A stretch of 64,000 nt of DNA, taken from positions 2,880,001 through 2,944,000 of the forward strand of contig CP084166.1 in the NCBI GenBank assembly GCA_021513695.1. The letters run 5' to 3'. Origin of the DNA: Candidatus Heimdallarchaeum aukensis. GTDB taxonomy: Archaea; Asgardarchaeota; Heimdallarchaeia; Heimdallarchaeales; Heimdallarchaeaceae. The notes under the pieces are model-generated. The model worked only from the letters and a program-made list of their open reading frames with translations, had not been told where the DNA came from and ran no database searches. The position numbers and the translations under genes are program-made. Position 1 is the first letter of the stretch. The number at the start of each line of letters is the position of its first letter. This document shows positions 40,271-64,000 of the stretch, one piece after another.

Positions 40271-43162
40271 CTATGCTTTGAACTTTTTGAACTTTTTAGC
40301 TACAATGGCAACTATAGGCAAAGCAATAAATATACTCCACATATTAAAAGGTAAGTCTAATGTTTGTTTATCTTGTGTCGTAGTTGGTTCTGATGGGTCA
40401 GATGGGTCAGATGGGTCAGTTGGGTCAGTTGGGTCAGTTGGGTCAGTTGGTTGGGAATCGGATGAAGCTTGAACTGTTAATGTTATGTTATTTGAATTTC
40501 CATAAGTGTCTGTAGCTGTAATGAAAATAGTGTGTTTTCCTGAAGTAGTTATGTAGTCTTTTAGATTGGCTGAATATGTATCTCCATTACTGTAGGATCC
40601 TGACAAAATTAGTTTTCCATCTATGTAAAATTCGAACCAGTCTGGGTTATCATCGTAGAGGGTGAAAGTAAATTCTTTATCTGTACCTATTATATAGTCA
40701 AAAGGATCTTCTAGGTTTGTGTAAATTTGAGGTGGATTGTAGTCATATTCATAGCTGCTATTGTAACTGTTTACATAAAATGTTATATTGTTATTATTTC
40801 CCCATTGATCAAATGCTTCGATATAAATCTCATAGGTTCCTTCTTCAAAGATATAGTCACTCAATAAGAAATGTTGCTCATTCTCTGGATACCATCCATA
40901 GCCAACATAAGGAACATCAGAAAGAACAAGTGTGCCATTGATGTAAAGGTTGTATATATCAGGATATTCATCCATTATGTAGAAGGTATAGTTGTAATAA
41001 TCACCTATTGTATAATAGCTTACATTGTATATGTTCTCAAATCTAGGTGGGTCAGTTTCTGGTTGGCTAGAAACAACATTAATTTTCCATTCATAATATC
41101 TTTCATTTCCTGAGGTATCATTAGCAAAGAATGATAAAATATGTCCTCCTGTTTCACTAAATAATTCTTTTCCAGTAAAGTAAAGCTCAAAATAGTTCGG
41201 GTCATAGTTTCCTGAAGAAAGAATTACACCATCTAATGTTATTTGGTAATAATCTGGATTTTGCTCATTAATTGTAAAGCTATACCTCTTTGCACTTCCT
41301 AGTTCATAGTAGGTATCTACACTCCATCCTAAACTTGGTTTTTTAATATCTGTTCCTTCGGGATAAGCTTTTACCCAGAATGATTCTTTTTTGTAATTAT
41401 CAAACATATCGTAAGCTATTACAGTAAGATTATGTAAGCCTGTTCCACTGATTAAATCATTAAAATTATAGTAATAAGTATAAAATTCTGAATAATTTCC
41501 TGTGTCATATATAATTCCATCAACGTAAAACTCAAAGTAATTTGGATTTCCATCCTGTACATCAAACCAGAAGTTTTCATTACTTCCTAGAGCCCATTTA
41601 TAAGGTTCTCCCAAATTTTTCCCTTCATACCAAAGCGTATATAGATATGGAGGATCTACATCTGTTCCACTAGGGTAGATAGTTAAAGGAACAATTTTAG
41701 AATAAGTAGTGTTGACTGCGTCAGTAAAAGTTATGTTAACTGTATAGTCTCCAACTGCCCATGTATTACCAATCCATAAATCTAAAGTTTTGTTTCCATA
41801 ACCTCTATAATAGTTTGAATAATATTGTGTTAAATCTGATTGGTTATAATAGAATTTAACTTCTAATTCCCAAATAGTGTCAGAATAGATATAGATGTAT
41901 TTTAGAGATAGATCTATATCTTCTACCCCTTTATATAATTTATTTGTCTCGATTTGGCTCTTCCATTCAGGAATTGGGTATCTATCATCTTCTATCGATT
42001 GGAACCTTACATATGAATTTCCTTTAGCGTCATAAACTATAATTTTGAAATCTTTCCAAGTAGAATCAAGATTATACTCAAAATAATCTGTTGGAACGGT
42101 GTAATATAGATCTGTACTAGAAATGGGCAGACTGTCAACTAAAACCCAACGCCAATAATTATACTTGTAATTCATTACATAGAATTCTAATTTTACAACA
42201 TCTTCTGAGAATTGTAGTGGAAAAGTTATTTCTATTGTGCTATTGGTTATAGGTTTATTCCAGCTGTAATCCTTGAAAGTGAAATAGGGAACAAAGGAAT
42301 TATCACTTGTAGAATAAAAGTTGCTTGCTTTAGTTAAAGTATAAGAGTACTCTGACTTAGTATTTTCTACACGAGTAAAATTAACATAGGTGCCATAGTC
42401 ATCTAAATATTCATAGAAACTGTAAATATAATCATAATGATAGATTTTTTTGAATTCTAGTAAAGTTCCTGTATTATTGTCAACATAGTAATAATACTCT
42501 TCATAATTATAGTTAAGTGTATCAGCATCAACGCCATACCATGAAGAGGTCCAAGAACTTTGCCAAACTTCTGTTTTATAATAATAAACATCTATTTGCA
42601 AAGTAAAAATAACATTATTTACTGTATATTCTCTAGTTTCTTGGCCTATAAATGATGTTTGATAAAAATAATCTAGAGGATCGAAAACTAGATTAGTGTA
42701 ATTGTTTAAAGTTCTATAATATGCATCACCTGAATCCCATGATTCATAGATTTTTTCGTATTCGTAAGTACTACTTTCGTACCAATCATTATTTTGCCAT
42801 CTATAATATGTATTGGCATAGTAATAAGAATAGTTATTGGTACCTGTAGTAACGTCAAAAACCTCAATATAACTTGAACCTAAGTTTGTATTTGTAATAT
42901 TAAAAGCTCGAAAAGAATTTCTTACATCTCTATTGTAGTAAATATTTTGATAAGCATAACTATCTTTATTCTCATCAGGAAGGAATACCTCACTGGTATT
43001 AGTTTCATAAACTCTCTTATAATTATAAATGAATGTATCTCCATTATTTAACTGATAAATCTCTGCATTCACACATGTCGTTTGAAAACTTATGAAAGAA
43101 GTAAATGTAGCAATCAAGATCAAAGCAATAATTAAATTACTTTTCTTTATCAACATAAACAC
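40271..43162 (-). CDS. Large (963 aa) secreted Tyr/Asn/Trp-rich surface protein with a PT/PS repeat linker and C-terminal TM + KKFKKFKA tail. Tandem paralogue A.
   Basis: Signal peptide LIIALILIATFTSFISFQTTCVNA. Repeated modules of about 110 aa begin YPSGTDVDPP, YPEGTDIKKP, SQPETDPP and NPPQIY. C-terminus PTDPTDPTDPTDPSDPSDPSEPTTTQDKQTLDLPFNMWSIFIALPIVAIVAKKFKKFKA. Confidence 0.75.
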   Translation of the reverse strand: MFMLIKKSNLIIALILIATFTSFISFQTTCVNAEIYQLNNGDTFIYNYKRVYETNTSEVFLPDENKDSYAYQNIYYNRDVRNSFRAFNITNTNLGSSYIEVFDVTTGTNNYSYYYANTYYRWQNNDWYESSTYEYEKIYESWDSGDAYYRTLNNYTNLVFDPLDYFYQTSFIGQETREYTVNNVIFTLQIDVYYYKTEVWQSSWTSSWYGVDADTLNYNYEEYYYYVDNNTGTLLEFKKIYHYDYIYSFYEYLDDYGTYVNFTRVENTKSEYSYTLTKASNFYSTSDNSFVPYFTFKDYSWNKPITNSTIEITFPLQFSEDVVKLEFYVMNYKYNYWRWVLVDSLPISSTDLYYTVPTDYFEYNLDSTWKDFKIIVYDAKGNSYVRFQSIEDDRYPIPEWKSQIETNKLYKGVEDIDLSLKYIYIYSDTIWELEVKFYYNQSDLTQYYSNYYRGYGNKTLDLWIGNTWAVGDYTVNITFTDAVNTTYSKIVPLTIYPSGTDVDPPYLYTLWYEGKNLGEPYKWALGSNENFWFDVQDGNPNYFEFYVDGIIYDTGNYSEFYTYYYNFNDLISGTGLHNLTVIAYDMFDNYKKESFWVKAYPEGTDIKKPSLGWSVDTYYELGSAKRYSFTINEQNPDYYQITLDGVILSSGNYDPNYFELYFTGKELFSETGGHILSFFANDTSGNERYYEWKINVVSSQPETDPPRFENIYNVSYYTIGDYYNYTFYIMDEYPDIYNLYINGTLVLSDVPYVGYGWYPENEQHFLLSDYIFEEGTYEIYIEAFDQWGNNNNITFYVNSYNSSYEYDYNPPQIYTNLEDPFDYIIGTDKEFTFTLYDDNPDWFEFYIDGKLILSGSYSNGDTYSANLKDYITTSGKHTIFITATDTYGNSNNITLTVQASSDSQPTDPTDPTDPTDPSDPSDPSEPTTTQDKQTLDLPFNMWSIFIALPIVAIVAKKFKKFKA
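40386..40449. repeat. Tandem 9-bp repeat (gatgggtca x3, gttgggtca x3-4) encoding the (TDP/SDP)n linker of paralogue A.
   Basis: Read directly from the sequence. It is coding and in-frame. Confidence 0.8.
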
Positions 43163-43494
43163 CCCAAAATAAATTTTCTCAGAAATATTATATAAAAATT
43201 ATTTAATATGCAATCGAGTAGAATGCTTGTCTTTATTATCTTCTATAACTTCTTAACTTTGTTTTTTTCTATATTTTTGAAAATTGCTAAAATTGATCAA
43301 TGCGTATTAATTTTAAATTGAATATTGAATAAGTTAAGAATCGAACTTAATATTATCTTTAAACTAACTTAATTTTAATTAATAGAGTTTTTTCAATCTT
43401 ATAATGCCAAACTAAAAAATAGAAGAAATGAATTCTGTTTTAGTTATAGATTCAAAATTAATTCTCGATAAAAAAGAAGAAAAAGTAAGTAAAT

Positions 43495-46338
43495 TTATGT
43501 TTTATACTTTTTGAACTTTTTAGCTATAATAGTTATTACAGGTAAAGCGATAAAAATACTCCATACACTAAATGGTAAATCTATTGTTTGTTTATCTTGT
43601 GTAGTAGTTTCATTAGTATTATCAGAACTTGATTCATAAATTGCTTTTATTGATAATTTTAATTCATTGCTATTTCCAAAAACATCATAAGCAACCATTT
43701 TTATTGTATGTATTCCTTCTTCTGTAATGTAGGTATTAAGGTTAAATGAGATAGTAGTCCCATCAGTGTAACTATCGGTTTTAATCAATTCGTCGTCAAT
43801 GTAGAGTTCATAATAATCAGGATTTGCATCATATAATGTAAATTTCACTGTTTTACTAGTACCTATTACGTATTCAATTGCATGCCAATAGTCCATGTTA
43901 GTATCTATCTGGGGTGCATCATAATCATCTTGATAGGCTTCAGTATAGGCATTAACGTAAATTGTAATATTATTATTGTTTCCCCATTGATCGAAGGCTT
44001 CTATGTAGATTTCATTGGTTCCTTCTTCAAAGATATAATCTCGCAATTGCAAATGTTGCTCATTCTCTGGATACCATCCATAACCTTCATAAGGTACATT
44101 GGAAAGCGTTAGATTTCCATTAATATAAAGATTGTAAGTATCAGGATATTTATCGTTAATGTAGAAGGAAATGTCGTAATAATCCCCAATTCTGTAATAG
44201 TCAACATCATATATATTCTCGAATGTGGGAGGATCAGTCTCCGGTTGACTAGGAACGACATTAATTTCCTTTTCATAATACATTTCATTTCCTGAGGTAT
44301 CATTAGCAAAGAGGGATAAAATATGTCCGCCTGTTTCACTAAATAATTCTTTACCAGTAAAGTATATCTCAAAGTAGTTCTGATCATAGCTGCCTGATGA
44401 AATAATTTCATCGTTTAGTCTAATTTCGTAATAATCAGGGTTTTTCTCATTAAACCAAAAACTATATCGTTCTGCGCTTCCTAATTCATAGTAAGAGTTA
44501 ACATTCCACCATAAATCTGGTCTTTTTAAATCTGTTCCTTCAGGATAAGCTTTTACCCATACTGATTCTTTCCTATAATTTCCAAATTGATCATAGGTTA
44601 TAACAGTAAGGTTGTGCAATCCAACTTCATTAATAAGATCATTAAAGTTGTAGTAATAGTTAATTTGTTCAGAGTAATTTCCTGTATCATATAGAACTCC
44701 ATCAACATAAAATTCATAGTAATTTGGGTTATCATCCCAAGTATTGAACCAGAATTCTTCATAATCTCCGATAGCCCATTTATGTGGTTCTCCAAAATTT
44801 TTTTCTTCATACCAAGGCACATTTAAATCTGGAGGGTCTACATCCGTTCCACTGGGATAGATAGTTACAGGAACAATAGTAGAATAAGTAGTATTGACCG
44901 CGTCAGTAAACGTTATGTTAACTGTATAGTCTCCAACAGCCCATGTACCACCAATCCAAACATATAGTGTCCTATTTCCATAACCCTCATAATAGTTTGA
45001 CCAAAATTGTGTCAAATCTGACTGGTTATAATAGAATCTTGTTTCTACTTTCCAAGTAGTATCAGAATAAATATAAAGACATTTTAAGATCAGTTCCTTG
45101 TCTTCTACTCCTTTATATTCTTTATTTGTTTCTATTTGACTCTGCCAATCGGGAATAGGGTACCTGTCATCTTTTAATGAATAGGATTTTACGAATAAGT
45201 TGCCTTTTGCATCGTAAACTATTATTTTAAAATCTTTATGTATATCATACTGTATATATCCAAAGTAGTCAATTGGAGCGGTATAATTCAACTCTGTGCT
45301 AGTAATTGTTTGACTATCTACTAAATCCCATCTCCAAAAGCCATATTGATAGTTATGCACATAAAATTCCATTTTAACAACATCTTTAGAGAATAGGAAT
45401 GGAAAAGTTATTCCTGTTGTACTATTAGTTATAGGTTGAGTCCAGCTATTGTCCTTAAAAATAAAATATGGGACAAAAGAATTATCACTTGTAGAATAGA
45501 ACTTGCTTGCTTTAGTTAGAGTATATGTTTCAGAATTTTGGTTATTTTCCACACGGGTAAAATTAACATATGTATTGTAATCAGGTAAATATTCATAGAA
45601 ACTATAAAAAATATCATTATGATAATTTTTCTTATATTCTAGCAAAATTCCGGTGTTGTTGTCAACATAGTAATAACATTCATCGTAATTATAGCTGTGT
45701 GCTGTAGTCTCAACATCGTACCATGTCGAATTCCATGTGTCTTCCCACTCATTCATTTTACAATAATATATGTCTACTTGTAAAGTAAATACTTCACCAT
45801 TAACAACATATGTTCTAGTTTCTTGAGAAATGAATGTTGATGCTCCAAAATAACCTATTGGATCAAAAACTAGATCAGTGTAATTATTAAGGGTCCTATA
45901 ATCAGTATATCCCGAATCCCAAGAATAATTGATTATATCTTCATATTCATTTGAATTGTCTTTATACCAACCATCTGAATTCCATCTGTAATATGTGCTG
46001 TTCCAATAATAGATATAATCGGTGGCTCCCGTTGCAACATCAAAAACTTCAATATAGCTTGAACTTAGGTTTGTGTTTGTAACATTAAAAGCCCTAAGAA
46101 AATTATATTCTTCTTTCCTAAAGTGTACAGATTTGTAAGCATAATTTTCCTTATTATCATCTGGAAAGAATATTTCATTTGTATTAGATTCATAAACTTT
46201 CTTATAATTATAAACGAATTTATCTCCATTATTTAACTGATAAATCTCGGCATTTACTCCTACAGTTTGCAAACTTATGAAAGAAGTAAATGTAGCAATT
46301 AAGATCAAAGCAATAATTAAATTACTTCTTCTTATCAA
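43495..46338 (-). CDS. Large (947 aa) secreted Tyr/Asn/Trp-rich surface protein. Tandem paralogue B.
   Basis: N-terminal 60 aa are nearly identical to paralogue A (LIIALILIATFTSFIS...NAEIYQLNNGD). Shared blocks include VTIYPSGTDVDPP, KAYPEGTD, ELFSETGGHILS and YIEAFDQWGNNNNIT. C-terminus TTQDKQTIDLPFSVWSIFIALPVITIIAKKFKKYKT. Confidence 0.75.
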   Translation of the reverse strand: MIRRSNLIIALILIATFTSFISLQTVGVNAEIYQLNNGDKFVYNYKKVYESNTNEIFFPDDNKENYAYKSVHFRKEEYNFLRAFNVTNTNLSSSYIEVFDVATGATDYIYYWNSTYYRWNSDGWYKDNSNEYEDIINYSWDSGYTDYRTLNNYTDLVFDPIGYFGASTFISQETRTYVVNGEVFTLQVDIYYCKMNEWEDTWNSTWYDVETTAHSYNYDECYYYVDNNTGILLEYKKNYHNDIFYSFYEYLPDYNTYVNFTRVENNQNSETYTLTKASKFYSTSDNSFVPYFIFKDNSWTQPITNSTTGITFPFLFSKDVVKMEFYVHNYQYGFWRWDLVDSQTITSTELNYTAPIDYFGYIQYDIHKDFKIIVYDAKGNLFVKSYSLKDDRYPIPDWQSQIETNKEYKGVEDKELILKCLYIYSDTTWKVETRFYYNQSDLTQFWSNYYEGYGNRTLYVWIGGTWAVGDYTVNITFTDAVNTTYSTIVPVTIYPSGTDVDPPDLNVPWYEEKNFGEPHKWAIGDYEEFWFNTWDDNPNYYEFYVDGVLYDTGNYSEQINYYYNFNDLINEVGLHNLTVITYDQFGNYRKESVWVKAYPEGTDLKRPDLWWNVNSYYELGSAERYSFWFNEKNPDYYEIRLNDEIISSGSYDQNYFEIYFTGKELFSETGGHILSLFANDTSGNEMYYEKEINVVPSQPETDPPTFENIYDVDYYRIGDYYDISFYINDKYPDTYNLYINGNLTLSNVPYEGYGWYPENEQHLQLRDYIFEEGTNEIYIEAFDQWGNNNNITIYVNAYTEAYQDDYDAPQIDTNMDYWHAIEYVIGTSKTVKFTLYDANPDYYELYIDDELIKTDSYTDGTTISFNLNTYITEEGIHTIKMVAYDVFGNSNELKLSIKAIYESSSDNTNETTTQDKQTIDLPFSVWSIFIALPVITIIAKKFKKYKT

Positions 46339-46746
46339 CTTAACACCCCAAAATAAAGTTTCTCAGAAATAATATTTAAAAATTACTAATTAAGTAATCG
46401 AGCTGAAATTTTTTTCTATTCTCTTTTTAGAACTTACTAATGATTCTTTTTTCCTTTTTCAGAAAAATTGTTATAATTGGCTGATGATTATAAATCTTAA
46501 AATCGAATATAGATACATTCAGAACTAAAGTTGTAATTATCTTTTAATTGATTTTATTTCATCTCATTCCACTTCATTTAATTTCATTTAATTTCAGTCT
46601 CAATGTTAAGCTAAAAAAGAGAGAATAGGATTCAATTAAAACAATTTTTCTTTCTTTTTTTAAAGCAGAATTTCTTCATTTTCTTATTAGTTTTAAAAAG
46701 TCTAAGATTCAATATTAGTTCTTTTCACTTTTGTTGAAAGTAAGTG

Positions 46747-47712
46747 TCATTTTTTCTTTTCAGCATTTTTTATGGCTACTATTTCTGCAGCTATACTTAT
46801 TGCTATTTCTTCTGGAGTTATACTGTTAATACTTATTCCTATTGGAGAGTGAACTTTTTCTAGCAATTCATCAGATATTCCTTTTTGCTTTAGATTCTCA
46901 AAAAGTTTCTTTTTCTTTGACTTACTAGCCATTAAGCCTATGTATTTGAATTTTTTATGGATAAGTTTTTCTAAAACCAATTCGTCGTACTTATGTCCAA
47001 ACGACATAATAGTTACATACACATTATTTCCTTCTGGTACATATTTTTCTATTTCTTCATAATCTATTACTTTTTTCACATTTGCGTAGTTATTGTTTTT
47101 CATTGTATCGAGATTTTCTCTATTGTCATAAACCGTAATATGGAAATCCAACGTTTTCATTATTCTAGAAAAGGCTAAAGATACATGTCCTCCTCCTACG
47201 ATTATTAATCTATTTCTCAAGCCTATATTTTCTTTAAATGTCCATTTTTCTCCTTCTTCTATGAATTCGTACTGCTTTTCTGACATTTTATCCAGTTCTA
47301 TTTTTAGTCCTTTTTCATTTATTGTAATTATTGCTTGTTCCGCCTTGTTATAAGCGTTTATTATTTTTTGTACTTCACTTTTATCTTTTTCAACTATAGG
47401 AACTATTGCAAACGTTTGTGTTCCTGAGCATACCATCCCTGATTTATGTTCTCCTCCTTTTTCATTATGTATCATAAACTCTTTTTCTGTAGTAAAGTCA
47501 TTTTTTCTTAGTTTTTCTTTCGCTCTTTCTATTAGTTGATATTCCGATAAGCCTCCACCCACTGTTCCTTCTGCTTTTTCTAGTGTTACAAACATTTTTG
47601 CTCCTTCTGCATTGGGAGCTGAACCTTTTCTTTCTATTATTTCTACTAGAACAACGTTTGAGCCTTTTTGAAGCTCAGATAATACACTTTTCCAAAACTT
47701 TTCATCATTCAC
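46747..47712 (-). CDS. xdhC: XdhC/CoxI-family molybdoenzyme maturation (accessory) protein.
   Basis: N-terminal XdhC_CoxI motif VLVEIIERKGSAPNAEGAKMFV...GGGL. C-terminal Rossmann LIIVGGGHVSLAFSRIMKTLDFHITVYD. Confidence 0.75.
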   Translation of the reverse strand: MNDEKFWKSVLSELQKGSNVVLVEIIERKGSAPNAEGAKMFVTLEKAEGTVGGGLSEYQLIERAKEKLRKNDFTTEKEFMIHNEKGGEHKSGMVCSGTQTFAIVPIVEKDKSEVQKIINAYNKAEQAIITINEKGLKIELDKMSEKQYEFIEEGEKWTFKENIGLRNRLIIVGGGHVSLAFSRIMKTLDFHITVYDNRENLDTMKNNNYANVKKVIDYEEIEKYVPEGNNVYVTIMSFGHKYDELVLEKLIHKKFKYIGLMASKSKKKKLFENLKQKGISDELLEKVHSPIGISINSITPEEIAISIAAEIVAIKNAEKKK

Positions 47713-47730
47713 GTTTCATCACTTTAGATT

Positions 47731-49989
47731 TTAAGAATTATTTTCATATAGGTAAAGTAAAAGTTTTTCTGGCGTTAATGGAGCCGAGTAAACCCATTCT
47801 TTATCTTTCCTAAATGCTCTTGTAGCGTTTTTTATAGCAAAATATGCTCCGATTCCGTACATGAATGGTGGCTCTCCTATAGCTTTAGATTTTAAAACTG
47901 CTTCTGGATTTTCTGCATTTTCTAGAAACTTCACCTTTATTTCGGGGGTGAATGGAAGATTTGGTACTTTATACGTTGCAAAGGAATTTGTCAAGATATG
48001 TCCTTCTTTGTACATTAGTTGCTCTATTGTCATCCACCCTATTCCTTGAAGTAACCCTCCTTCTGTTTGTCCTAAATCAACCAGATAATTTATACTCTTT
48101 CCTGCATCATGAACAATTGTTACTTTATCTATTGTATATGTTCCTCTTAAGCAATCTATTGTTACTTCTGTTAATGCTGCTCCAAAAACGTGGTAAGCAA
48201 AGGGTTTTCCTTTCTTTTCTTCTTTGTTAAAGAATATTTTAGGTGTAGCATACAAAGCTTGACTTGAAAGATTTACTCTACTCATGTATGCTGAATTTAC
48301 AAGTTCATTCCAACCTAGTTCTGTTTTCTTTCCTTTAACATATACATAATCTTCTTTTATTTCTATTTCCTCTGGTTGAACTTGAAGTTTCTCAGAAGCT
48401 ACTTTTTTCAGTCTTTCTACCAATCTATTACAAGCTATCTCTGCTGCCTTCCCATTCAAATCAGCCCCTGTACTCGCTGCTGTGGGTGAGGTGTTGATCA
48501 CTCTTGTTGTATTCGTACTTTCTATTCTTATTCTTTCAGGGTCTATTCCGAGAGCTAATGAAACTATGTGTCTAATTTTAACATTTACTCCTTGTCCCAT
48601 CTCTATGGCTCCAGTGCTTACACTTACGCTCCCATCTTTGTAAATATTCACTAGCGCTCCTGCTTGATTTAGAAAAGTACTTGTAAACGAAATGCCAAAG
48701 CAAATTGGCATGATTGAGAGACCTTTTTTCATGTACTTGTTCGATTGATTAAATTCTTCTATTTCTTTTTTCTTTTGTTCAAAATTCGTTTCTTTTAGTA
48801 GTTCTTCGAAGCTTCTTCTTGCATTTGATCTTTCTACTTTTTGCCCATAATGAAACTCGTCTCCTTCATTTAACAGATTTTTCTCTTGTAGAACATGTTT
48901 TGGAACACCCATTACTTCTGCAGCTTTGTCAATGGCTGCTTCTATCAAGAACATTCCTTGTGGTCCTCCGAACCCTCTAAAGGCTGTGAAAGGAGGTAAG
49001 TTTGTTTTACATGGATAACCTGTTACTTTTACATTTGGGATATAATATGAATTAGTAGAATGGAAAAGAGTTCTACTTAAGATAGCTGTTGATAGATCAG
49101 CACTTGCTCCAGAGTTCTGGTAAATAGATGCTTCAAAAGCTATAATTTTTCCCTCTTTTGTTAGACCTATTTTGTAATCACTTGAGTAGGGGTGTCTTTT
49201 TCCTGTCATCTGTATATCTTCTTTTCTGTTTAGAACAAGTTTTACTGGCCTTTTTGTATGGTATGCACCTAAAGCGCAAATAGCTGCCCACTGTGTAGCT
49301 TGATCTTCTTTTCCACCAAACCCTCCTCCTATTCTCTTAACATCTACTTCTATCTTATTCATATCTAAACCGAGTATTTTTGCTGTTGTACCTTGAACAG
49401 TAGTGGGAGCTTGAGTGCTGGAATAGATAAGAATCTTATCATTTTCATCAGGAATAGCTAATGCTGCTTGAGTTTCAAGATAAACGTGTTCTTGTCCTCC
49501 ATTTTCTACTGTTCCTTCAATAATAACATCACATTTTTCCCAAGCTGCATCGACATCTCCATTTGAAAGAGTATTAGATGGAGCAATAAAAAGACCTTTT
49601 TCTGCTGCTTCTCTCGGATCAAAAACTGCAGGAAGTTCTTCATACTCTATTTCTACCAACTTACTTGCATTTTTAGCTTGTTCTTTTGTTTCAGCTAAAA
49701 TTATCGCTATCGGTTGTCCTACGAATTCTACTTCGTCTTCTACTAATAGCACTTCATCTTGAATAATTCGCCCTAATTGATTTTCTCCAGGAATATCTTT
49801 AGAAGTAAGAATCTTGCATACTCCGGGGCTCTTTTCAGCTTTTTCTAAATTTAATTTAACTATTTTTCCGTGAGGAATTGTTGAAGTAAAAACAAATGCA
49901 TGTAACAAATTAGATGGTTCTGGTAAATCATCTACATACAAAGATTCTCCTTTTGTATGAGGAGCTAAAAATTCTTTAATTATTTTCAT
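47731..49989 (-). CDS. Xanthine dehydrogenase / aldehyde oxidoreductase family molybdopterin-binding large subunit.
   Basis: 752 aa. N-terminal a/b-hammerhead (GESLYVDDLPEPSNLLHAFVFTSTIPHGKIV), then Mo-binding domains (GGGFGGKE, ...RGFGGPQG...). Confidence 0.85.
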   Translation of the reverse strand: MKIIKEFLAPHTKGESLYVDDLPEPSNLLHAFVFTSTIPHGKIVKLNLEKAEKSPGVCKILTSKDIPGENQLGRIIQDEVLLVEDEVEFVGQPIAIILAETKEQAKNASKLVEIEYEELPAVFDPREAAEKGLFIAPSNTLSNGDVDAAWEKCDVIIEGTVENGGQEHVYLETQAALAIPDENDKILIYSSTQAPTTVQGTTAKILGLDMNKIEVDVKRIGGGFGGKEDQATQWAAICALGAYHTKRPVKLVLNRKEDIQMTGKRHPYSSDYKIGLTKEGKIIAFEASIYQNSGASADLSTAILSRTLFHSTNSYYIPNVKVTGYPCKTNLPPFTAFRGFGGPQGMFLIEAAIDKAAEVMGVPKHVLQEKNLLNEGDEFHYGQKVERSNARRSFEELLKETNFEQKKKEIEEFNQSNKYMKKGLSIMPICFGISFTSTFLNQAGALVNIYKDGSVSVSTGAIEMGQGVNVKIRHIVSLALGIDPERIRIESTNTTRVINTSPTAASTGADLNGKAAEIACNRLVERLKKVASEKLQVQPEEIEIKEDYVYVKGKKTELGWNELVNSAYMSRVNLSSQALYATPKIFFNKEEKKGKPFAYHVFGAALTEVTIDCLRGTYTIDKVTIVHDAGKSINYLVDLGQTEGGLLQGIGWMTIEQLMYKEGHILTNSFATYKVPNLPFTPEIKVKFLENAENPEAVLKSKAIGEPPFMYGIGAYFAIKNATRAFRKDKEWVYSAPLTPEKLLLYLYENNS

Positions 49990-51362
49990 AATTTAACCTC
50001 CATTTCAGGAAATAATGTCATAAAATGCGCAATAATTAATTGACGAACTAGTAGTCTTTTGTATTTTGCACTTCCTCTTACATCACTTATAGGACTTATT
50101 TCTGAGTCAGCTATTTCTAACGCTTCTCTAACTACTTCAGAATTAACCTCTTTATCATTTAGAAAGTTTGAAGTTTTTTCTAAATATTTAGGAACGGGAG
50201 CTACTCCTCCTACAGATAAATGGACATTCTTGATCTTATTTTCTTCTTTTTCAAACGATATTGCGCTGTTTACACTTGCTATATCTACATATTTTCGCAT
50301 AGCTACTTTTTCAAAATTGAAAAATCTCTTTTTTGATTTAATTCTTAACGATTCTACCACTTCTCCTTCTTCTAAATCCATTTGTTTGTATCCTTTGTAA
50401 AAATCTTTAAGAGGTAGAATTCTACTTTTTTCTCCTTTTCTCAATGATATTTCTGCTCCTAATCCTAAAAAATAGATTGTTAAATCTCCTATTGGAGACG
50501 CATTAACTAGGTTCCCTCCTAAAGTCGCTCTTATTCTTATTGGTAACGCAGAAACAACTCTTAAATCATTCTTTATATCAAAAAGCTCATTCAACTCTTC
50601 TGATAAGCGAATATCTTCCATACTCGCTAAAGCACCAATGTAAATATACCCATCTTCTTCCCAAATATCGTTTCTAATTTGCAGTTGAGACAGAAAAACA
50701 GGTTTTTCTATTTTCTCTCTTTGAACAAGTAAATCTGTTGCTCCTGCGACATTTGTTCCTTTACCATTTGATTCTAATTTTTCATTTAATTTCTCTAATT
50801 TTTCATGTATATTTTTAAAATATTCAGGAATAACGCCTAATTCAATTAGATAATTAACTCTCGCCGAATAATTAAGATCTTCTACTTTTATTTTTTCAGC
50901 TATTTTTTCTGCAGCACGCTTTATTGCTGCATAAGTTCCACATCTACACAAATTACCTTCAATTGCTGTTAAGATATCTTCTTTTACAAAAATTTCATTT
51001 AAGAAAAATCCAGTCAAACTCATAACAAAACCAGGAGTGCAAAATCCACACTGTGAAGCTCCTTCCTCCACTATTGCTTCTTGAATTGGAGTTAACTTTT
51101 CTTGATTTATTCCTTCAATAGTTACAACATGTTTTCCTATTATTTCTCCTAGAGGTAATATACAAGAAGTAACAGCTTTATATTTTACTGTAGATTCTTC
51201 CATTTCTCCAAGTAAAATCATACAAGCGCCACATTCTCCTTCATGACAAGCTTCTTTTACTCCAGTGAATCCTTTTTTTCTTAAAAAATCTAAAGTTGAA
51301 CTTCCTAAAGGAGCATCTATTTCTTCAATTTTGTTATTTAGTACGAACTTCATTTTTTTCAC
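49986..51362 (-). CDS. Fused [2Fe-2S] ferredoxin + FAD-binding (CoxS+CoxM-like) subunit of the molybdenum hydroxylase.
   Basis: CHEGECGACMILLG, QCGFCTPGFVMS and CRCGTY (two 2Fe-2S clusters), followed by a FAD-binding PCMH-type domain (GTNVAGATDLLVQ...). The stop overlaps the large-subunit start. Confidence 0.8.
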   Translation of the reverse strand: MKKMKFVLNNKIEEIDAPLGSSTLDFLRKKGFTGVKEACHEGECGACMILLGEMEESTVKYKAVTSCILPLGEIIGKHVVTIEGINQEKLTPIQEAIVEEGASQCGFCTPGFVMSLTGFFLNEIFVKEDILTAIEGNLCRCGTYAAIKRAAEKIAEKIKVEDLNYSARVNYLIELGVIPEYFKNIHEKLEKLNEKLESNGKGTNVAGATDLLVQREKIEKPVFLSQLQIRNDIWEEDGYIYIGALASMEDIRLSEELNELFDIKNDLRVVSALPIRIRATLGGNLVNASPIGDLTIYFLGLGAEISLRKGEKSRILPLKDFYKGYKQMDLEEGEVVESLRIKSKKRFFNFEKVAMRKYVDIASVNSAISFEKEENKIKNVHLSVGGVAPVPKYLEKTSNFLNDKEVNSEVVREALEIADSEISPISDVRGSAKYKRLLVRQLIIAHFMTLFPEMEVKL

Positions 51363-51519
51363 TGTTTTCTATTCTACCAAACATATCATAGCTCAAAGTT
51401 TACCTTTTAATGAGCTATAATATACTCTATTTATTACAAAGTTTCTAATTTTACGATATAAGTCTTATTAATCAAACAATTTATTTTCTTATTTTTTATG
51501 CAAGTGATTTGTTTTTCAA

Positions 51520-52758
51520 TTATTGAGTTTCGAACATCTTAACTATTTCTTCTTTTGAATATGACTTACTTGAGATAACTCCTTCTACAGCTTTAATATC
51601 TTTTAATCCATTTCCAGTTACAGCGACACAGACAGAATCTTCTTTTCTTATTTTTCCTTCTTTTATTAATTTTTTCAATCCTGCATATGGTGCTACAGCA
51701 GCTGGTTCTGCAAATAAGCCTGTTTCTTTTCCTAATTCTGAAATTGCTTCCAATATTTCTTCATCACTTACAGTCACATAGTATCCTCCACTTTCAGCGA
51801 CATATTTACAAGCTTTAATTACATCCCTTGGTGTTCCCACACTTATACTATCGGCAACTGTTGAGCCTTTAATTGGATGAGGAGTATAAGGTTCTCCTTT
51901 GTCAAAAACATGTTTAATTGCAGCTATTCCTTCTGCTTGTACTCCTATTATTTTAGGTATTGATTCTATTAATCCTATTTCCTTAAACTCTTTAAAACCC
52001 TTATACAGAGAACTTACTACTGTTCCATCTCCCACTCCTACAAGAACATAATCTGGAACTTTGAAATCATTTTGTACTGCAATCTCAAAGGCTCCCGTTT
52101 TTTTTCCCTCCAACAAATAAGGATTTATTGCTGCATGTCTGCAATACCACCCTTTCTTCAACCCAAGTTCCAAAGATAGATCATAAACTTCATCATATGT
52201 TCCTTCTACAGCGAAAACTTTTGCTCCTGATATTTCTAGTTGAGCTCTCTTTCCTCCGGGTATAGTTGAGGGGACGAAAATATAAGTTTCCATGGGCGTA
52301 TGAGCATTTAGCATAGCTAAAGAAGAGGCAGCATTACCTGTTGAAGCACAGAAAACAGTATCATTTTTTTCATCCAGAGCCATATTTATTGCTATTGAAC
52401 TTGCTCTATCTTTGTAAGAACTTGAAGGATTAGACCCATCATATTTTAACATTAAATCTTTTAAACCCAGTAAATCGAATTTATATAAGGGAGTTCCTCC
52501 TACATAGGGATCAAATTTTCCTTTTGCCTTTGTTGGTAAAAGAAAATCAAATTGATACATTGAAGCTTTTTTATAGAAATTCTTCTGAACTACGACGGGG
52601 TTCTCTTTTATCTTTTCATAGTCATAGATCACTTCAAGTGTACCCATAATTGGTCCACATTTTTCACAGAAGTATAGTCCTGGTCTAGGTTCATATTCTT
52701 TTTTGCAAGAAATGCAACGAAGGAAGTAGCTGCTCATTTGAATTCCTCTTTTTTTCAT
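51520..52758 (-). CDS. Threonine-synthase-family PLP enzyme (fold type II) with an N-terminal zinc ribbon.
   Basis: CISCKKEY...CEKCG Zn ribbon, VGGTPLYKF, then GSNPSSSYKDRASS (the TS-type xNPTGSFKDRG PLP-lysine motif) and GNAASS. Confidence 0.65.
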   Translation of the reverse strand: MKKRGIQMSSYFLRCISCKKEYEPRPGLYFCEKCGPIMGTLEVIYDYEKIKENPVVVQKNFYKKASMYQFDFLLPTKAKGKFDPYVGGTPLYKFDLLGLKDLMLKYDGSNPSSSYKDRASSIAINMALDEKNDTVFCASTGNAASSLAMLNAHTPMETYIFVPSTIPGGKRAQLEISGAKVFAVEGTYDEVYDLSLELGLKKGWYCRHAAINPYLLEGKKTGAFEIAVQNDFKVPDYVLVGVGDGTVVSSLYKGFKEFKEIGLIESIPKIIGVQAEGIAAIKHVFDKGEPYTPHPIKGSTVADSISVGTPRDVIKACKYVAESGGYYVTVSDEEILEAISELGKETGLFAEPAAVAPYAGLKKLIKEGKIRKEDSVCVAVTGNGLKDIKAVEGVISSKSYSKEEIVKMFETQ

Positions 52759-53837
52759 GTTAATACTCCACTAATTGCATCATAAGGACAACGAGATTCG
52801 CATAAACCGCACTGGATGCATTTGTTTTTGTCAACAATAATTTTTCCATCCTCTGATAATGCTCCAGCAGGACATATTTTCACGCAAAGACCACATAATG
52901 TGCACTTTTCATTAAATTCTGGAAAATTATTCTCTTTTTCTTCTTCAACTCTGAAAATAGTCTCCTTCCTTACTTTTCTTATTTCCTCAATTGATGAGAA
53001 ACCATACTTTTCCAATGCCTTAGGTAGATCTTTCACTATTTTATCGTAAAGATATCTCCCTTTAATTAAAGCGGAAGAAAGCATTTGAACCAAATCAGCT
53101 CCTGCAAAAATGAACTCTAACACATCTTCAGCTTTTGCTATTCCTCCTACTCCAATAATTGGTAAATCAGGAAAAGCTTTTCTTATATGATATACTCTAT
53201 GCAAAGCTATAGGTTTGATAGCTGGTCCACTGATCCACACTTCATCTCCAAGTAAGAGAGAACGGTTCTTTAGATCTACTGCAGTAGCTGGTCCTAAAGA
53301 GTTTATTGCTACTATTCCTGTAGCTCCAGCGTCAATTACTGTTTTTACGAAACCCAGATAGTCTGTTACATGAGGGCTGAGTTTCATAAAAATAGGTTTA
53401 TCTGTATTTTCCCTTATACTTCTCACGATTCCATCTAGATTTTCTTTGACATAATGTGTTGAAATTTCAAAGAAATCAGCAAAAGGGTCTAGCTTTGGAA
53501 TTAAATATCTAAAGTCTTCTTCTACATATCCTGCACTTATAATCAGTGGTTTATTTTTTTCCGAGTGAACTTTCGGTAGAATAGTTTCTATCCATTCATC
53601 AGAATGAAGTTCTGACCATAATTCTCTGTTATAAATTGTGTTTGATGTACCAGCTATACAAGGTTTCTTTACTACTGCTCCTTTTATTGAAATGGTTTTT
53701 GAGACCATGTAACCACAAGAATTGTTATTAAAAAACAGCATATTCTCTAATCCTTCACATAACGGTCCAGCAGCAGGACCTAAAGGGTTTGAAAATTTTT
53801 TTCCTAATAGTTCTATTGACAGATCCATTTTTTTCAC
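52755..53837 (-). CDS. Dihydroorotate/dihydropyrimidine dehydrogenase family TIM-barrel protein with a C-terminal 2x[4Fe-4S] ferredoxin domain (PreA-like).
   Basis: DHOD/DPD-like barrel (GPAAGPL..., ...IGVGGI...). C-terminal CTLCGLCVKICP and CIQCGLCESRCP. Confidence 0.7.
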   Translation of the reverse strand: MKKMDLSIELLGKKFSNPLGPAAGPLCEGLENMLFFNNNSCGYMVSKTISIKGAVVKKPCIAGTSNTIYNRELWSELHSDEWIETILPKVHSEKNKPLIISAGYVEEDFRYLIPKLDPFADFFEISTHYVKENLDGIVRSIRENTDKPIFMKLSPHVTDYLGFVKTVIDAGATGIVAINSLGPATAVDLKNRSLLLGDEVWISGPAIKPIALHRVYHIRKAFPDLPIIGVGGIAKAEDVLEFIFAGADLVQMLSSALIKGRYLYDKIVKDLPKALEKYGFSSIEEIRKVRKETIFRVEEEKENNFPEFNEKCTLCGLCVKICPAGALSEDGKIIVDKNKCIQCGLCESRCPYDAISGVLT

Positions 53838-53844
53838 TTTCCAA

Positions 53845-55155
53845 TTAATTCATTTTTTCTATTCTTTCCCATAATTTTTTAGAAGCATCAGTTGCTTCTT
53901 TGTAAATCGTTTCTTCTTCAAAAATACTATTGTACTCTTTTATTAGAGGTTTGCCTTTTACAAATACCCAAGAAGGTTTAAGGTTATCAAATATTCCAAA
54001 GAATAAATGGCCAAAAACGTTATTCTCATTCATTGTTGTGGGTTGAATATAGTCAACTAATATAAAGTCAGCAACATAATCTTCTTTTATTTTTCCGATT
54101 TTTATATTCATCATCTTTCCAAAATATTCGTAAGAATGAACAATATGTTCTTTTATCTCATCTAAGCCTATTCCTACAGGATTTTTCATTCCTGCTTTTC
54201 CTAAGTAAAACAGGTTAGTCCATTCTTTGGCTATATTTGTACCTAGACCATCAGTTCCTATCAAAATAGGGATATTGAATTGTTTATAAAGAGAGTAGTT
54301 GAAAAATCCTACAGCGTTGTTTAGATTAGAAGTTGGATTAAGAGCTATATAGGCTCCTTTTTTACTCATTATTTCTGCTTCTTTTTCATTAATATGAACA
54401 CAATGTGCAAAAATCGAGTTTTCATTAATTAAATTGTAATCATCATATCTTTCTACCACTCTTTTACCGTATTTAGATAAAGAATCGTCTTCATCTTCTT
54501 TACTTTCTGCTACATGAACATGTATAGGATTTTTTTCGATTATTTTACTTATTTTCTCCAAAGTTTCATTCGATAAGCTCATCGAAGCATGTAAACCGAA
54601 CATACCTTTAGCATCAGAGGAGTTAAAAGCTAGTCCTGAGAGATTTTCTTCAATACACTCTTCAACATCAAACCTGTCACTTGTTTCAAAGCAAAAAATC
54701 CCTCTCATTCCTAAGGTTTCAACTATTGCTCTTTTTAATTCAGTTAAACTGCCTTTAATATCTATTCCACTTGCATGATGGTCTATAAGAGATGTAACTC
54801 CATTTTTCAGTGATTCTATTCCATAAACTAACCCACTGTAATAGATTGTTGGGTTATCTAATTGACTGTCAAACTTCCACCAAAGTTGTTCTAACAATTC
54901 TTTGAAGCTTGTAGGGTTGAAAGGTATGGAAGCTCCTCTTACTAATGTAGAATAAATATGTGTATGAAAATTGATTAAACCAGGAAGGAGAAGCTTGTTT
55001 TTACCGTCTATTACTTGATCAATCTCATCATTTTTTCTGAAATTATCCATTGAACCTACTTCAACGATTTTTTCATTGAACAAGCAATAACCATCATCAA
55101 TAAATGTATCATAGTCATAGATTTTCACGTTAACAATAGCTTTCATATACATCAC
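53845..55155 (-). CDS. SsnA/chlorohydrolase-like amidohydrolase (metal-dependent hydrolase superfamily).
   Basis: LLPGLINFHTHIYS (HxH metal motif), GTDG and downstream His/Asp ligands. Length is 436 aa. Confidence 0.65.
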   Translation of the reverse strand: MMYMKAIVNVKIYDYDTFIDDGYCLFNEKIVEVGSMDNFRKNDEIDQVIDGKNKLLLPGLINFHTHIYSTLVRGASIPFNPTSFKELLEQLWWKFDSQLDNPTIYYSGLVYGIESLKNGVTSLIDHHASGIDIKGSLTELKRAIVETLGMRGIFCFETSDRFDVEECIEENLSGLAFNSSDAKGMFGLHASMSLSNETLEKISKIIEKNPIHVHVAESKEDEDDSLSKYGKRVVERYDDYNLINENSIFAHCVHINEKEAEIMSKKGAYIALNPTSNLNNAVGFFNYSLYKQFNIPILIGTDGLGTNIAKEWTNLFYLGKAGMKNPVGIGLDEIKEHIVHSYEYFGKMMNIKIGKIKEDYVADFILVDYIQPTTMNENNVFGHLFFGIFDNLKPSWVFVKGKPLIKEYNSIFEEETIYKEATDASKKLWERIEKMN

Positions 55156-55162
55156 AATAGTC

Positions 55163-58052: not shown

Positions 58053-58067
58053 ACAAAAAAAGAAAAA

Positions 58068-61021: not shown

Positions 61022-61042
61022 CTATTTTTTTTCTTTTTATTT

Positions 61043-62257: not shown

Positions 62258-64000
62258 TCATCTTTTTTTTCTAGCTATAGGGAGCTCTGTTCTCCACTTT
62301 CCATCATATTGATAGAACGCGCCTGTTACTGCTCCTGCAGTTGGTACTAAACCTATTTCTCCCACACCCTTTGCTCCAAAACCACCAATTTCTTCAGGTT
62401 CTTCAATTATTATTACTTCTATTTCTGGAGTATCTTTAGCCTTTAATATTTGCAGATCTCTAATTTTTAATGAAACTGGAACACTCTTTGTTGTTGGAAA
62501 GTCCTCTGATAAAGTGTGACCTAAACCCATATGTATTCCTCCTTCTATCTGACCTGCAACAGCCAAAGGATTTACTGCTCTACCCACATCGTGAGCAGCC
62601 AGTATTTTCTTCAGTTTCCCGTTTTCATCAAGAAAAGCTACTTGAACTGCATAACTGAAAGCTAAATGTGTAATTGGGTTATCTACTGGGGTACCTGGCT
62701 TAACTGTTATGTTGGTAACATACTCACCATGATACTCTTTTCCTACTAATTCCTTAGGAGAGTGGTTTTTTAGGTCTTCTGCAAGTTTTTCTGCAGCATA
62801 CTTTGCCGCCATAGTATCAAGTGCTGTTGCTCTTGAAGCAGTTGTCATTCCACACTTTGTTTTATCGTAACTTATCGATTTTACATCCATCTTTGAAGGG
62901 TGGATATTTGTTAATTCGCTAACTGCTTGCGTTAAAACAGTAAATAATCCTTGTCCCATTTCAGTAAAACCAGTCAATATTTCCAACCTTTCGTCTTCAA
63001 GAACACGGATTAATACTCTACCTGTATCTTCGAGAGCGTTACCTATTCCTGTGTTTTTGATTCCACAAGCGATACCTTTTGGTCCTTTATAATTCTTATA
63101 CTGCTCTTTAACTGCATCTAAACATTTCTGTAAACCAACAACTGTTTTTGTCATTATTTGTCCAGTAGCAAAACGTTTTCCTTCTCTCAAGATGTTTCGT
63201 TCTCTTATATCAAAATCATCTATTTCCTTTCCATCATCCCTCATCATCGCAGCAATCATGTTTAAACATGTTTCTATTGCAAAAGAGGTTTGATTTACTC
63301 CAAATCCTCTCATAGCTCCACAAGGAGGATTATTAGTGTAAACAGCTGTTGCATCTACATCTATTGCAGGCAAATAATATGGACCGCATGAGTGCCCTGC
63401 AGCACGTTCAACTACAGCTCCTCCAACAGAAGCATAAGCACCAGTATCGCCTATTATCCTTATTCTTGCTCCAGTTAGCTTACCATTTTCATCAGCTCCA
63501 ACTTCATATCGCATAATCATTGGATGGCGTTTAGGATGCATTCTCAAAGATTGCTCCCTAGTTAGAACTGTTTTCACTGGTTTCTTCAAGAGATAAGCTG
63601 CAAGAGCTGTTTGGGCTTGAACAGACAGATCTTCTTTACCTCCAAAAGCTCCCCCATTTGTTACCAGTTCAACTATTACATTCTCTTTTTCTAATCCTAG
63701 CACTTCTGCTATTTGTCTCTGATCTTCATGTACTCCTTGCCCTTGACTATAAACATGTACACCTTTGTCTGTGGGTAAAGCAAGCGAAGCTTCTACTTCT
63801 AGAAAAGCATGTTCTATTCTTTGAGTTCTAAATTCTTGTTTAACAAAATATTTTGAATTCCTAAAAGCTTCTTCCACATCTCCCCTGCTGAAAACAGTTC
63901 GGCTGAGTATATTACCGCTTTCATGTATTTTTTCAGCTGTAGTGTCCATAGCTTTTATAGGGTCATCTAAAGGTTCGAGTACCTCATATTCCACCTTAAT
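62258..64000 (-). CDS. Second xanthine-dehydrogenase-family molybdopterin-binding subunit (partial, N-terminus beyond the window end).
   Basis: GGAFGGKED, GDTGAYASVGGAVVERAAGH...CGAMRGFG and the C-terminal MoCo dimerisation region. The reading frame is open upstream of the GTG chosen by the ORF track (..IKVEYEVLEP), so the gene continues past 64000. Confidence 0.8.
   Translation of the reverse strand: MKVEYEVLEPLDDPIKAMDTTAEKIHESGNILSRTVFSRGDVEEAFRNSKYFVKQEFRTQRIEHAFLEVEASLALPTDKGVHVYSQGQGVHEDQRQIAEVLGLEKENVIVELVTNGGAFGGKEDLSVQAQTALAAYLLKKPVKTVLTREQSLRMHPKRHPMIMRYEVGADENGKLTGARIRIIGDTGAYASVGGAVVERAAGHSCGPYYLPAIDVDATAVYTNNPPCGAMRGFGVNQTSFAIETCLNMIAAMMRDDGKEIDDFDIRERNILREGKRFATGQIMTKTVVGLQKCLDAVKEQYKNYKGPKGIACGIKNTGIGNALEDTGRVLIRVLEDERLEILTGFTEMGQGLFTVLTQAVSELTNIHPSKMDVKSISYDKTKCGMTTASRATALDTMAAKYAAEKLAEDLKNHSPKELVGKEYHGEYVTNITVKPGTPVDNPITHLAFSYAVQVAFLDENGKLKKILAAHDVGRAVNPLAVAGQIEGGIHMGLGHTLSEDFPTTKSVPVSLKIRDLQILKAKDTPEIEVIIIEEPEEIGGFGAKGVGEIGLVPTAGAVTGAFYQYDGKWRTELPIARKKR

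Follow-up and report, generated by a model that had tools for sequence, protein, structure and literature searches.

In the Asgard archaeon Candidatus Heimdallarchaeum aukensis, two adjacent genes, here termed A and B, probably encode type-I, C-terminally anchored, N-glycosylated cell-surface glycoproteins that serve in a coat or in adhesion. Both lie in a 64-kb stretch of its closed genome, which was analysed as a whole (the window), and on its reverse (-) strand, to which all feature coordinates given below for A and B refer. Gene A (40271..43162) is an open reading frame of 963 residues read from a GTG at 43162. This GTG is overlapped by a Shine-Dalgarno (SD)-like GGGGTG and hence the next ATG, at 43156, is the probable true start, giving 961 residues. 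A is presumably UJG40721 (K9W45_12910), although neither the 963- nor the 961-residue form has an exact match in the protein collection. Gene B (43495..46338; 947 residues, TTG start) corresponds exactly to UJG40722.1 (K9W45_12915), annotated as ‘hypothetical protein’.

An earlier note had described A and B as tandem, Tyr/Asn/Trp-rich paralogues from a lineage whose cell surface is poorly characterised, and this description is borne out. BLASTP aligns them collinearly over their full length with 67% identity, 80% positives and 2% gaps. Tyr, Asn and Trp make up 13.2, 8.5 and 2.5% of A and 11.9, 9.2 and 2.9% of B, against 5.1, 5.9 and 1.1% in 39 long open reading frames of the window. The first 60 residues, which had been called nearly identical, are only about 78% identical, and the cores are not specially diverged as had been proposed, since the divergence peaks in the fourth C-terminal module (51% identity). 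Each gene is preceded by a promoter-like region. For A (43160..43198) this comprises a TATA-like TTTTTATATAA at 43188-43198 and the GGGGTG at 43160-43165, and for B (46344..46382) a TATA-like TTTTTAAATAT at 46372-46382 and GGGGTG at 46344-46349. The TATA-like box is kept in all eight family members and the SD-like element is recognisable in seven of them, so that A and B may well be separate transcription units, each with its own conserved elements.

The anatomy of the two proteins supports an exported, C-terminally anchored surface protein built from Ig-like repeats. Residues 1-33 of A (43064..43162) form a signal peptide with a KK n-region and a hydrophobic core, ending in V-N-A followed by E; it coincides with a hydropathy peak and with an N-terminal helix of low pLDDT in the predicted structure. 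The signal peptide of B (residues 1-30, 46249..46338) likewise ends in VNA before E, and cleavage by the Sec pathway would occur after V-N-A. There follows a Tyr-rich head of about 255 residues (A 34-290, 42293..43063; B 31-288, 45475..46248, collinear with A), which in A is predicted to consist of about 12 long antiparallel β-strands. The structure model of the N-terminal unit of the family is confident, and the head has no convincing match in the PDB. Two β-sandwich domains, D2 and D3, come next (A 291-392 and 393-494, 41681..42292; B 289-390 and 391-492, 44863..45474, again collinear). D3 is PKD-like, and conservation within the family is highest in the block that ends this domain, WAVGDYTVNITFTDAVNTTYS in A.

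The earlier note had counted four or more modules of about 110 residues. Four homologous C-terminal modules, m1-m4, are indeed present but are 95-108 residues long, and D2 and D3, which stand N-terminal to them, share no sequence similarity with them. In A the modules span residues 495-598, 599-697, 698-805 and 806-900 (40463..41680), and in B residues 493-596, 597-695, 696-803 and 804-900 (43639..44862). Pairwise BLAST gave E-values of 1.7e-19 (m1-m4), 9e-14 (m1-m2), 1e-14 (m3-m4) and 4e-10 (m2-m4), with scores of 38-63 bits, whereas shuffled controls did not exceed 19.6 bits. The module consensus is D.PP...YY.IG....F..YD.NPDYYE.Y.DG......Y........G.H.....A.D..GN. and the modules are predicted to be β-sandwiches with pLDDT of 80-90, which agrees with Ig-like repeats, one of the two kinds (Ig-like or cadherin-like) that the earlier note had raised as a question. 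A module profile matches 4xed, the PKD domain of an M14 peptidase from an archaeon, and the N-domain of chitinase A. The modules and D3 share with PKD and E-set Ig-like domains a β-sandwich of about 90 residues and the C-terminal strand signature ...G.Y...V.A.D..GN..., but the modules have their own D.NPDYYE motif and stay below threshold for Big_13 and OmpL47 in Pfam and NCBIfam (Pfam Big_13: 18.2 bits for A, 23.7 for the relative P0005 and no match for B; gathering cut-off 27). The module thus defined is a divergent subfamily found throughout Heimdallarchaeia, with up to 13 copies in proteins of 1-5 thousand residues. Many of these giant proteins have ..PGF.. tails, unlike A and B.

A head held away from the membrane could instead be a catalytic or a carbohydrate- or peptide-binding domain, making A and B anchored extracellular enzymes or nutrient-capture proteins. 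We regard this as quite unlikely. Searches of Pfam, NCBIfam and PDB sequences found no catalytic family in either protein, and structural matches to glycoside hydrolase (GH) entries were partial, covering 85-140 residues. The enzymatic fold that the earlier note had named as evidence against a surface role was therefore not found.

Downstream of the modules both proteins were said to end in a Thr/Pro linker, a transmembrane helix and a KKFKK tail. The helix and the tails (KKFKKFKA in A, KKFKKYKT in B) are present in both, whereas the linker is Pro-rich in A only. The A linker (residues 901-933, 40364..40462) reads SDSQ(PTD)4(PSD)2PSEPTTTQDKQ, has pLDDT of about 30 and contains 7.7 tandem copies of a 9-bp unit at the DNA level (40382-40450); that of B (residues 901-917, 43588..43638) is rich in Ser, Thr, Asn and Asp and lacks Pro. 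The C-terminal tripartite signal comprises TLDLPF, a helix at about 941-955 and the basic tail in A (residues 934-963, 40274..40363), and TIDLPF, a helix and the basic tail in B (residues 918-947, 43498..43587). Across the family the motif takes the form NT[LIV]x[LI]DAP, with QT[LI]DLPF in A, B and a third paralogue, C (see below), and it is specific to the head-bearing family. These sequence features indicate that the helix and the Lys-rich tail would keep the protein in the membrane.

We compared this signal with curated sorting signals. In NCBIfam searches PGF-CTERM matched neither the whole A and B proteins nor their isolated tails, T-[LI]-D-L-P-F standing in the place of its motif. The two Asgard models were scanned against eight tails, those of A and B and six from more distant relatives. 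The A and B tails gave no match to Heimdall-CTERM (NF045529) at E ≤ 10, and the relatives scored 12-18 bits (12.3-17.7) against a cut-off of 24, aligning only through the helix and basic part (positions of about 8-26 in a 26-position model). Loki-CTERM (NF033507; cut-off 19.9 bits) likewise failed to match A or B and matched three of the six relatives at 12.7, 14.6 and 20.4 bits, of which only P0043 passes. Heimdall-CTERM and Loki-CTERM proteins are of the same lineage as A and B and follow a common logic, in which secreted proteins of several domains finish, at their very C-terminus, in a short motif, a transmembrane helix and a cluster of Arg and Lys, but the QT[LI]DLPF-type motif of A and B is distinct. 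The T-[LI]-D-L-P-F just outside the helix might serve a putative sortase-like enzyme as a site of processing or sorting. Given that the motif fails both Asgard models and that no sortase-like enzyme for A and B was identified, such processing is speculative. No archaeosortase-like gene was noticed among the open reading frames scanned within the window.

The earlier note had put forward A and B as candidate S-layer or major envelope/adhesin proteins. True S-layer proteins would be very abundant and would form by self-assembly a regular two-dimensional lattice around the cell, like the Haloferax surface glycoprotein. Several observations speak against an S-layer, and we judge it improbable. The first Heimdallarchaeaceae strain in culture, imaged by cryo-ET, has an amorphous protein coat, which also lines internal vesicles, and no paracrystalline lattice (10.1101/2025.11.06.686947). 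A Hodarchaeales strain does show a surface lattice, and the putative S-layer proteins reported for Hodarchaeales are described as homotetramers with a central pore, conserved across many Asgard lineages (10.1101/2025.02.26.640444). In contrast, the named relatives of A and B all fall within Heimdallarchaeia, and this narrow range also argues against identity with the KTGHC1_P6247 family. The Hodarchaeales proteins (KTGHC1_P6247 and KTGSC1_P0196) are likewise N-glycosylated, Heimdallarchaeia-related Asgard surface proteins, glycosylation being predicted in the case of A and B, but they are set apart by their description as pored tetramers of broad conservation. Three co-resident paralogues with heads 63-72% identical fit poorly with a single lattice. 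Furthermore, A and B have neither the PGF-CTERM nor sequence homology to the haloarchaeal S-layer glycoprotein (Haloferax volcanii csg, 7ptp) and other ArtA substrates, from which they also differ in their large N-terminal non-Ig head and their divergent, co-existing paralogues.

A stalked surface glycoprotein, the reading that we prefer, finds parallels among bacterial stalk adhesins and biofilm scaffolds (SiiE, MpIBP region II, RbmA, SraP/GspB). These gave the best matches to D2-D3 in Foldseek, are matched by the module profile too, and carry a distal binding region on an anchored Ig-like rod, as we propose here. They belong to another domain of life and are anchored differently, and the likeness is at the level of fold only (TM 0.15-0.3). 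In our model the exported, acidic ectodomain would be glycosylated at conserved N-x-S/T sites, of which there are 11, and the six β-sandwich domains together with the flexible Ser/Thr linker (with Pro in A) would make a stalk which, from the domain count, may reach about 25 nm (about 25-30 nm for the six domains and the head together). The stalk would display the lineage-specific, Tyr-rich, all-β head at its distal end, where the head may make the functional contacts, either laterally within a protein coat or in adhesion to partners, particles or minerals, or both. As the head has no known ligand or fold relative, this role is argued from its position and its evolutionary rate.

Amino acid divergence of the family relative to the median of the flanking genes is about 2.5-fold overall and about 4-fold in the head, with faster change in the distal half. 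dN/dS is below 1 in every region with an estimable dS, which is no proof of diversifying selection, and relaxed constraint would also fit. The earlier note took the tandem duplication as a sign of surface variation. For the A/B pair this does not hold: with a dS of about 1.2, a longest identical DNA run of 32 nt and no recent exchange between the two genes, the duplication is, as judged from the DNA comparison, old and not a recent variation device. Variation is nonetheless real, but of another kind, seen in the fast distal half and in recombination between B and the third paralogue.

This paralogue, C (UJG40736.1, K9W45_12985), lies just past the window end. The open reading frame at the right edge (62258..64000, (-)) is xanthine-dehydrogenase-like, of an 881-residue type, and by accession order is UJG40734. 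It is 97% identical to residues 302-881 of its orthologue in Candidatus H. endolithica, and synteny is seen in loci L001 and L003. With this marker, synteny and accession order would put C some 1.8 kb past the last position of the window. C is probably inverted relative to B. B and C differ at 108 positions within the first 465 residues (23%; counted over residues 2-465) but at only 1 of 482 in residues 466-947 (43498..44943 in B, with the recombination or gene-conversion boundary at its 5′ end). This contrast indicates recent recombination between head and stalk. In addition, the segment of about 20 kb between B and C has the opposite orientation in Ca. H. endolithica, and as this inversion has the paralogous genes themselves at its ends it points to homologous recombination. 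Ca. H. endolithica also carries a broken family copy, and in one copy there (copy II) the head-D2-D3 cassette (residues 45-476) is inverted, with one junction in the conserved block where the B/C boundary lies. Among relatives, tandem pairs and decayed copies are found repeatedly.

These rearrangements would also be expected of a programmed surface-variation system, in which inversion (site-specific or homology-driven) and cassette exchange switch heads and stalks among the three paralogues so as to escape viruses or alter the choice of partner. The exchanged halves of B and C, the inverted segment, the cassette junction and the recurrent pairs all favour such a system, yet we consider it unlikely. 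No invertase or tyrosine recombinase was found near the paralogues in either species, where the neighbouring genes are metabolic apart from a single mobile-element gene, for a DDE transposase, in Ca. H. endolithica. The junctions of the intragenic inversion have only 6 bp in common (ATTTAT/ATAAAT), neither long inverted repeats nor defined sites of at least about 20 bp were present there, and the inverted piece contains a stop codon; hence this inversion looks like an accident. A, B and C each carry conserved promoter-like elements of their own and none is therefore a silent cassette, and the lack of recent A/B exchange and dN/dS below 1 also weigh against a programme. The stalked-glycoprotein model would account for the family history by old duplication, copy decay and homologous recombination between paralogues, which would bring the conserved stalk half together with different versions of the variable head-D2-D3 half and would have inverted the segment of about 20 kb between oppositely oriented copies.

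A bolder version of the model would combine four proposals: that the amorphous Heimdallarchaeaceae coat, which also lines vesicles, is built mainly from this family; that the head is a β-fold absent from the PDB; that an undescribed sorting enzyme processes the LD(A/L)P-type signal; and that the tandem and inverted paralogue arrangement serves, through recombination, to shuffle heads and stalks and so vary the surface. That all of these should hold together is rather unlikely. The family is narrowly distributed and, as few genomes were seen to carry it, it may be an accessory protein of minor importance. Were A and B minor accessory adhesins, they would be an ordinary example of fast-evolving surface proteins. 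Among known archaea, Heimdallarchaeia stand closest to eukaryotes. Models of eukaryogenesis give a central place to partner contacts and membrane dynamics, both of which are mediated by the surface of these cells. With its domains mapped, its conserved glycosylation sites and its distinct C-terminal signal, the family provides a concrete, lineage-specific candidate for a coat protein of these cells, and its paralogues, as recombination substrates, appear to have reshaped a chromosomal stretch of about 20 kb in an Asgard archaeon.

A (40271-43162, minus strand, a 963-aa ORF) and its neighbouring paralogue B (43495-46338, minus strand, a 947-aa ORF) align over their full length with 67% identity, 80% similarity and 2% gaps (BLASTP). 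The Ca. H. aukensis genome is closed (3.08 Mb), and eight proteins flanking the pair, together with B, exactly match accessions within UJG40717-UJG40733; B itself is UJG40722.1, annotated as hypothetical. A was found in neither its GTG- nor its ATG-start form in a 15-billion-sequence collection, whereas all tested neighbours including B were present. The Tyr/Asn/Trp richness described in the earlier note is clear for all three residues (Tyr 13.2/11.9%, Asn 8.5/9.2% and Trp 2.5/2.9% for A/B versus 5.1, 5.9 and 1.1% in the window's other long ORFs). Only an N-terminal signal and a C-terminal helix are hydrophobic, the latter being followed by KKFKKFKA (A) or KKFKKYKT (B), which agrees with the TM helix and KKFKK tail described previously. 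In contrast, the first 60 residues, said to be nearly identical, are ~78% identical, and divergence, said to lie in the cores, is distributed along the whole protein. The Thr/Pro linker ascribed to both proteins holds for A only, where a Pro-rich linker, (P-T/S-D)n, is encoded by a 9-bp tandem repeat (40382-40450, 7.7 copies, 91% matches). This repeat could give rise to length variation and the tract is possibly of O-glycosylation type. Overall, the earlier observation is confirmed, its interpretation in part only.

The four repeated C-terminal modules that had been proposed are borne out. In A the homologous modules m1-m4 occupy residues 495-598, 599-697, 698-805 and 806-900 and share the signature D.PP...YY.IG....F..YD.NPDYYE.Y.DG...G.Y.....G.H.....A.D..GN. 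Five of the six module pairs match by BLAST (E = 1.7e-19 to 2e-5), the sole non-significant pair being m1-m3 (E 0.48), and the four strongest score 38-63 bits versus at most 19.6 bits for shuffled controls. Searches of Pfam, NCBIfam and PDB sequences with A and B returned no family above threshold; sub-threshold Ig-like matches were seen to Pfam Big_13 (residues 862-897) and NCBIfam OmpL47 (864-893). The earlier note had asked whether structure prediction would reveal Ig-like repeats, and the full-length AF2 model, of mediocre overall pLDDT (67), does render the modules as beta-sandwiches with pLDDT 80-90. Their fold is PKD-like, with both proteins below the Pfam PKD and Big_13 thresholds. A model of residues 34-497 built from a 19-sequence alignment was confident (pLDDT 88.5, pTM 0.72) and shows a head of ~12 antiparallel strands (A ~43-280; mostly 9-26 residues) followed by two beta-sandwiches. 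Elsewhere in the window, a 485-aa ORF (27871-29328, minus strand; annotated as 457 aa, UJG40709.1) combines an N-terminal TM helix, one module with 33% identity to A module 4 and an endonuclease/exonuclease/phosphatase domain, and thus the module would also act as an extracellular spacer on enzymes. The window further includes, at 2237-6637 (minus strand), a 1466-aa MCM replicative helicase gene split by intein sequences, in which Pfam matches two stretches of the intein splicing domain and a LAGLIDADG homing-endonuclease domain.

The ectodomains contain 20 (A) and 19 (B) N-x-S/T sequons, where their own composition would predict 13.0 and 12.1 (P = 0.026 and 0.019), and 11 sequon positions are common to all seven full-length homologues, at identities down to 44%. 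A is strongly acidic (D+E 133 versus K+R 57). Neither of the dedicated NCBIfam models, 'Heimdall-CTERM' and 'Loki-CTERM', matches the tail of A or of B; both proteins fall below the thresholds for PGF-CTERM, Heimdall-CTERM and Loki-CTERM membership, and in relatives the TM and basic part alone match, at 12-18 bits versus the 24-bit cut-off. Hence the tripartite C-terminus, which judging from its sequence would work like a sorting signal, lies outside both curated families.

Homology between the regions upstream of A and B extends over ~210 nt. On the minus strand, all eight loci examined, including that of the 44%-identical homologue P0005, keep a TATA-like box (A 43188-43198, B 46372-46382), and an SD-like GGGGTG (A 43160-43165, B 46344-46349) can be made out in seven of them; at A, its position makes the ATG at 43156 the probable real start. 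With the oligo-T tracts found 3' of both genes, these elements make A and B look like putative independent, functional transcription units. No known RNA was found when the spacers were scanned with Rfam.

Among 5.8 billion protein clusters just five were related, all from Heimdallarchaeaceae. When 1.84 billion representatives were searched exhaustively with an HMMER profile, 310 matches in two classes were obtained. In the first, proteins of 1-5 kaa, one of them from Kariarchaeaceae, carry the C-terminal module in as many as 13 copies. In the second, a separate conserved unit consists of the N-terminal ~490 residues and is found in ~15 further clusters (620-1040 aa), whose named members are all Heimdallarchaeaceae or 'Heimdallarchaeota'. 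These share one order: signal peptide, head, two beta-sandwiches, 1-6 modules, a Thr/Pro/Asp-rich linker, a motif, the TM helix and an Arg/Lys tail. The motif is N-T-[LIV]-x-[LI]-D-A-P; A, B and their close relatives have Q-T-[LI]-D-L-P-F instead. Thirteen giant module-rich proteins of 1.3-3.4 kaa (P0009, P0011, P0014, P0017, P0027, P0038, P0053, P0063, P0065, P0087, P0096, P0125 and P0153) lack the TM helix and basic tail and end in a common motif, ...A(R/S)xILLAY(R/K)N..(L/I)..., which may be a distinct C-terminal domain. A distant subfamily (~25% identical to A) includes a same-strand tandem pair, 69% identical, at L006 7559-9517 and 10001-11893 (JGI 3300033141 contig), and in both L006 and L005 the subfamily is followed by a convergent IF-2B-family gene.

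Flanking genes of aukensis and Ca. H. endolithica are 88-98% identical (median dS ~0.36, dN ~0.05, omega ~0.10). B and its positional endolithica orthologue have the dS of these flanks (0.38), with dN 0.127 and omega 0.33; change is fast in the head (dN 0.21, omega 0.38) and in module 2 (omega 0.45), and modules 3 and 4, which lie near the membrane, are conserved (omega ~0.1, dS 0.14-0.20). Such unevenness in dS itself suggests a mosaic history. Omega did not exceed 1 in any region whose dS could be estimated, so positive selection is unsupported. A and B differ at dS ~1.2 and share no identical DNA stretch longer than 32 nt, so their tandem duplication is ancient, and dS of ~1.4 between A and the endolithica gene at the same position marks A as a deep, so far unique lineage.

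The homologue P0002 is no orthologue: it is UJG40736.1 (K9W45_12985) of the same aukensis genome, a third paralogue, C. Its accession follows those of the 401-, 881- and 246-aa genes of the window's right edge, where the endolithica 881-aa protein shares 97% identity with the edge ORF, and in two related loci a paralogue lies on the opposite strand ~885 bp past the start of the 881-aa gene. From this accession order and synteny, C is predicted at ~65.8-68.6 kb on the plus strand, inverted relative to A/B. B and C differ at 108 positions within residues 2-465 and at one within 466-947; this sharp boundary, which lies within WAVGDYTVNITFTDAVNTTYS, the best-conserved block of the family, indicates a recent event of gene conversion or crossing-over.

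A ~20-kb cluster (window 46339-64000 and beyond; L001 and L002 in endolithica) is flanked by oppositely oriented paralogues. It encodes XdhC, xanthine-dehydrogenase subunits, threonine synthase, a dihydroorotate-dehydrogenase-like protein, amidohydrolases, a PLP enzyme, an OTCase-like protein, a YgeY-type hydrolase and a second XDH-like protein. The order is A-, B-, {XdhC ... 881, 246}, C+ in aukensis and III-, II-, {246, 881 ... XdhC}, I+ in endolithica (I-III being its copies of the family); hence this catabolic cluster lies inverted in one species relative to the other, and the breakpoints fall at the paralogues. Between the PLP enzyme and OTCase-like genes, aukensis carries a 618-aa PQQ/FG-GAP beta-propeller protein (58068-59924, minus strand) that is missing at the syntenic position in endolithica (L001) and L003.

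An intragenic inversion has broken endolithica copy II (L001 8285-11107, CP084167.1, mixed strands): residues 1-46 and 475-end lie on the plus strand and 45-476 are inverted (9709->8414). The junctions have ATTTAT/ATAAAT alone in common, and the inverted piece, with one in-frame stop, is annotated separately as the 279-aa hypothetical protein K9W46_13860. A programmed switch behind such rearrangements is disfavoured by the lack of an invertase near the endolithica paralogues, where there is a DDE transposase alone (PF01609, L002 8390-9373, minus strand), between XdhC and copy I; the corresponding aukensis site has no insertion. We tentatively read the rearrangements as homologous and, occasionally, illegitimate recombination among paralogues. 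A Heimdallarchaeaceae MAG has, immediately upstream of its intact P0001 gene, a decayed C-terminal half-copy (L007 8414-9706) that is 56% identical to A residues 493-945 and broken into small ORFs.

Collectively, A and B are best explained as stalked, putatively N-glycosylated, C-terminally anchored surface glycoproteins, in which six beta-sandwich domains would carry a lineage-specific head roughly 25 nm off the membrane; evolution in the distal half is several-fold faster than in the genome background. The same logic is seen in haloarchaeal surface glycoproteins and in bacterial stalk adhesins. Anchored archaeal surface glycoproteins with Ig-like repeats are a known kind; this is a new form of it, with an unmatched head and a distinct C-terminal signal. 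The Heimdallarchaeum genome-description paper does not mention the A, B and C genes, and no S-layer protein was detected in the P. syntrophicum proteome. Cells of a cultured Heimdallarchaeaceae strain have a protein coat that is amorphous and not an S-layer lattice (10.1101/2025.11.06.686947). The lattice of a Hodarchaeales strain is ascribed to a widely conserved tetrameric protein (10.1101/2025.02.26.640444), which by its description sounds different from this family. A, B and C may serve as major components of the coat, as minor adhesins or as receptors exposed to viruses. The family is a concrete candidate for the Heimdallarchaeial cell-surface question and, with the endolithica copies, a clear case of rearrangement mediated by paralogues.
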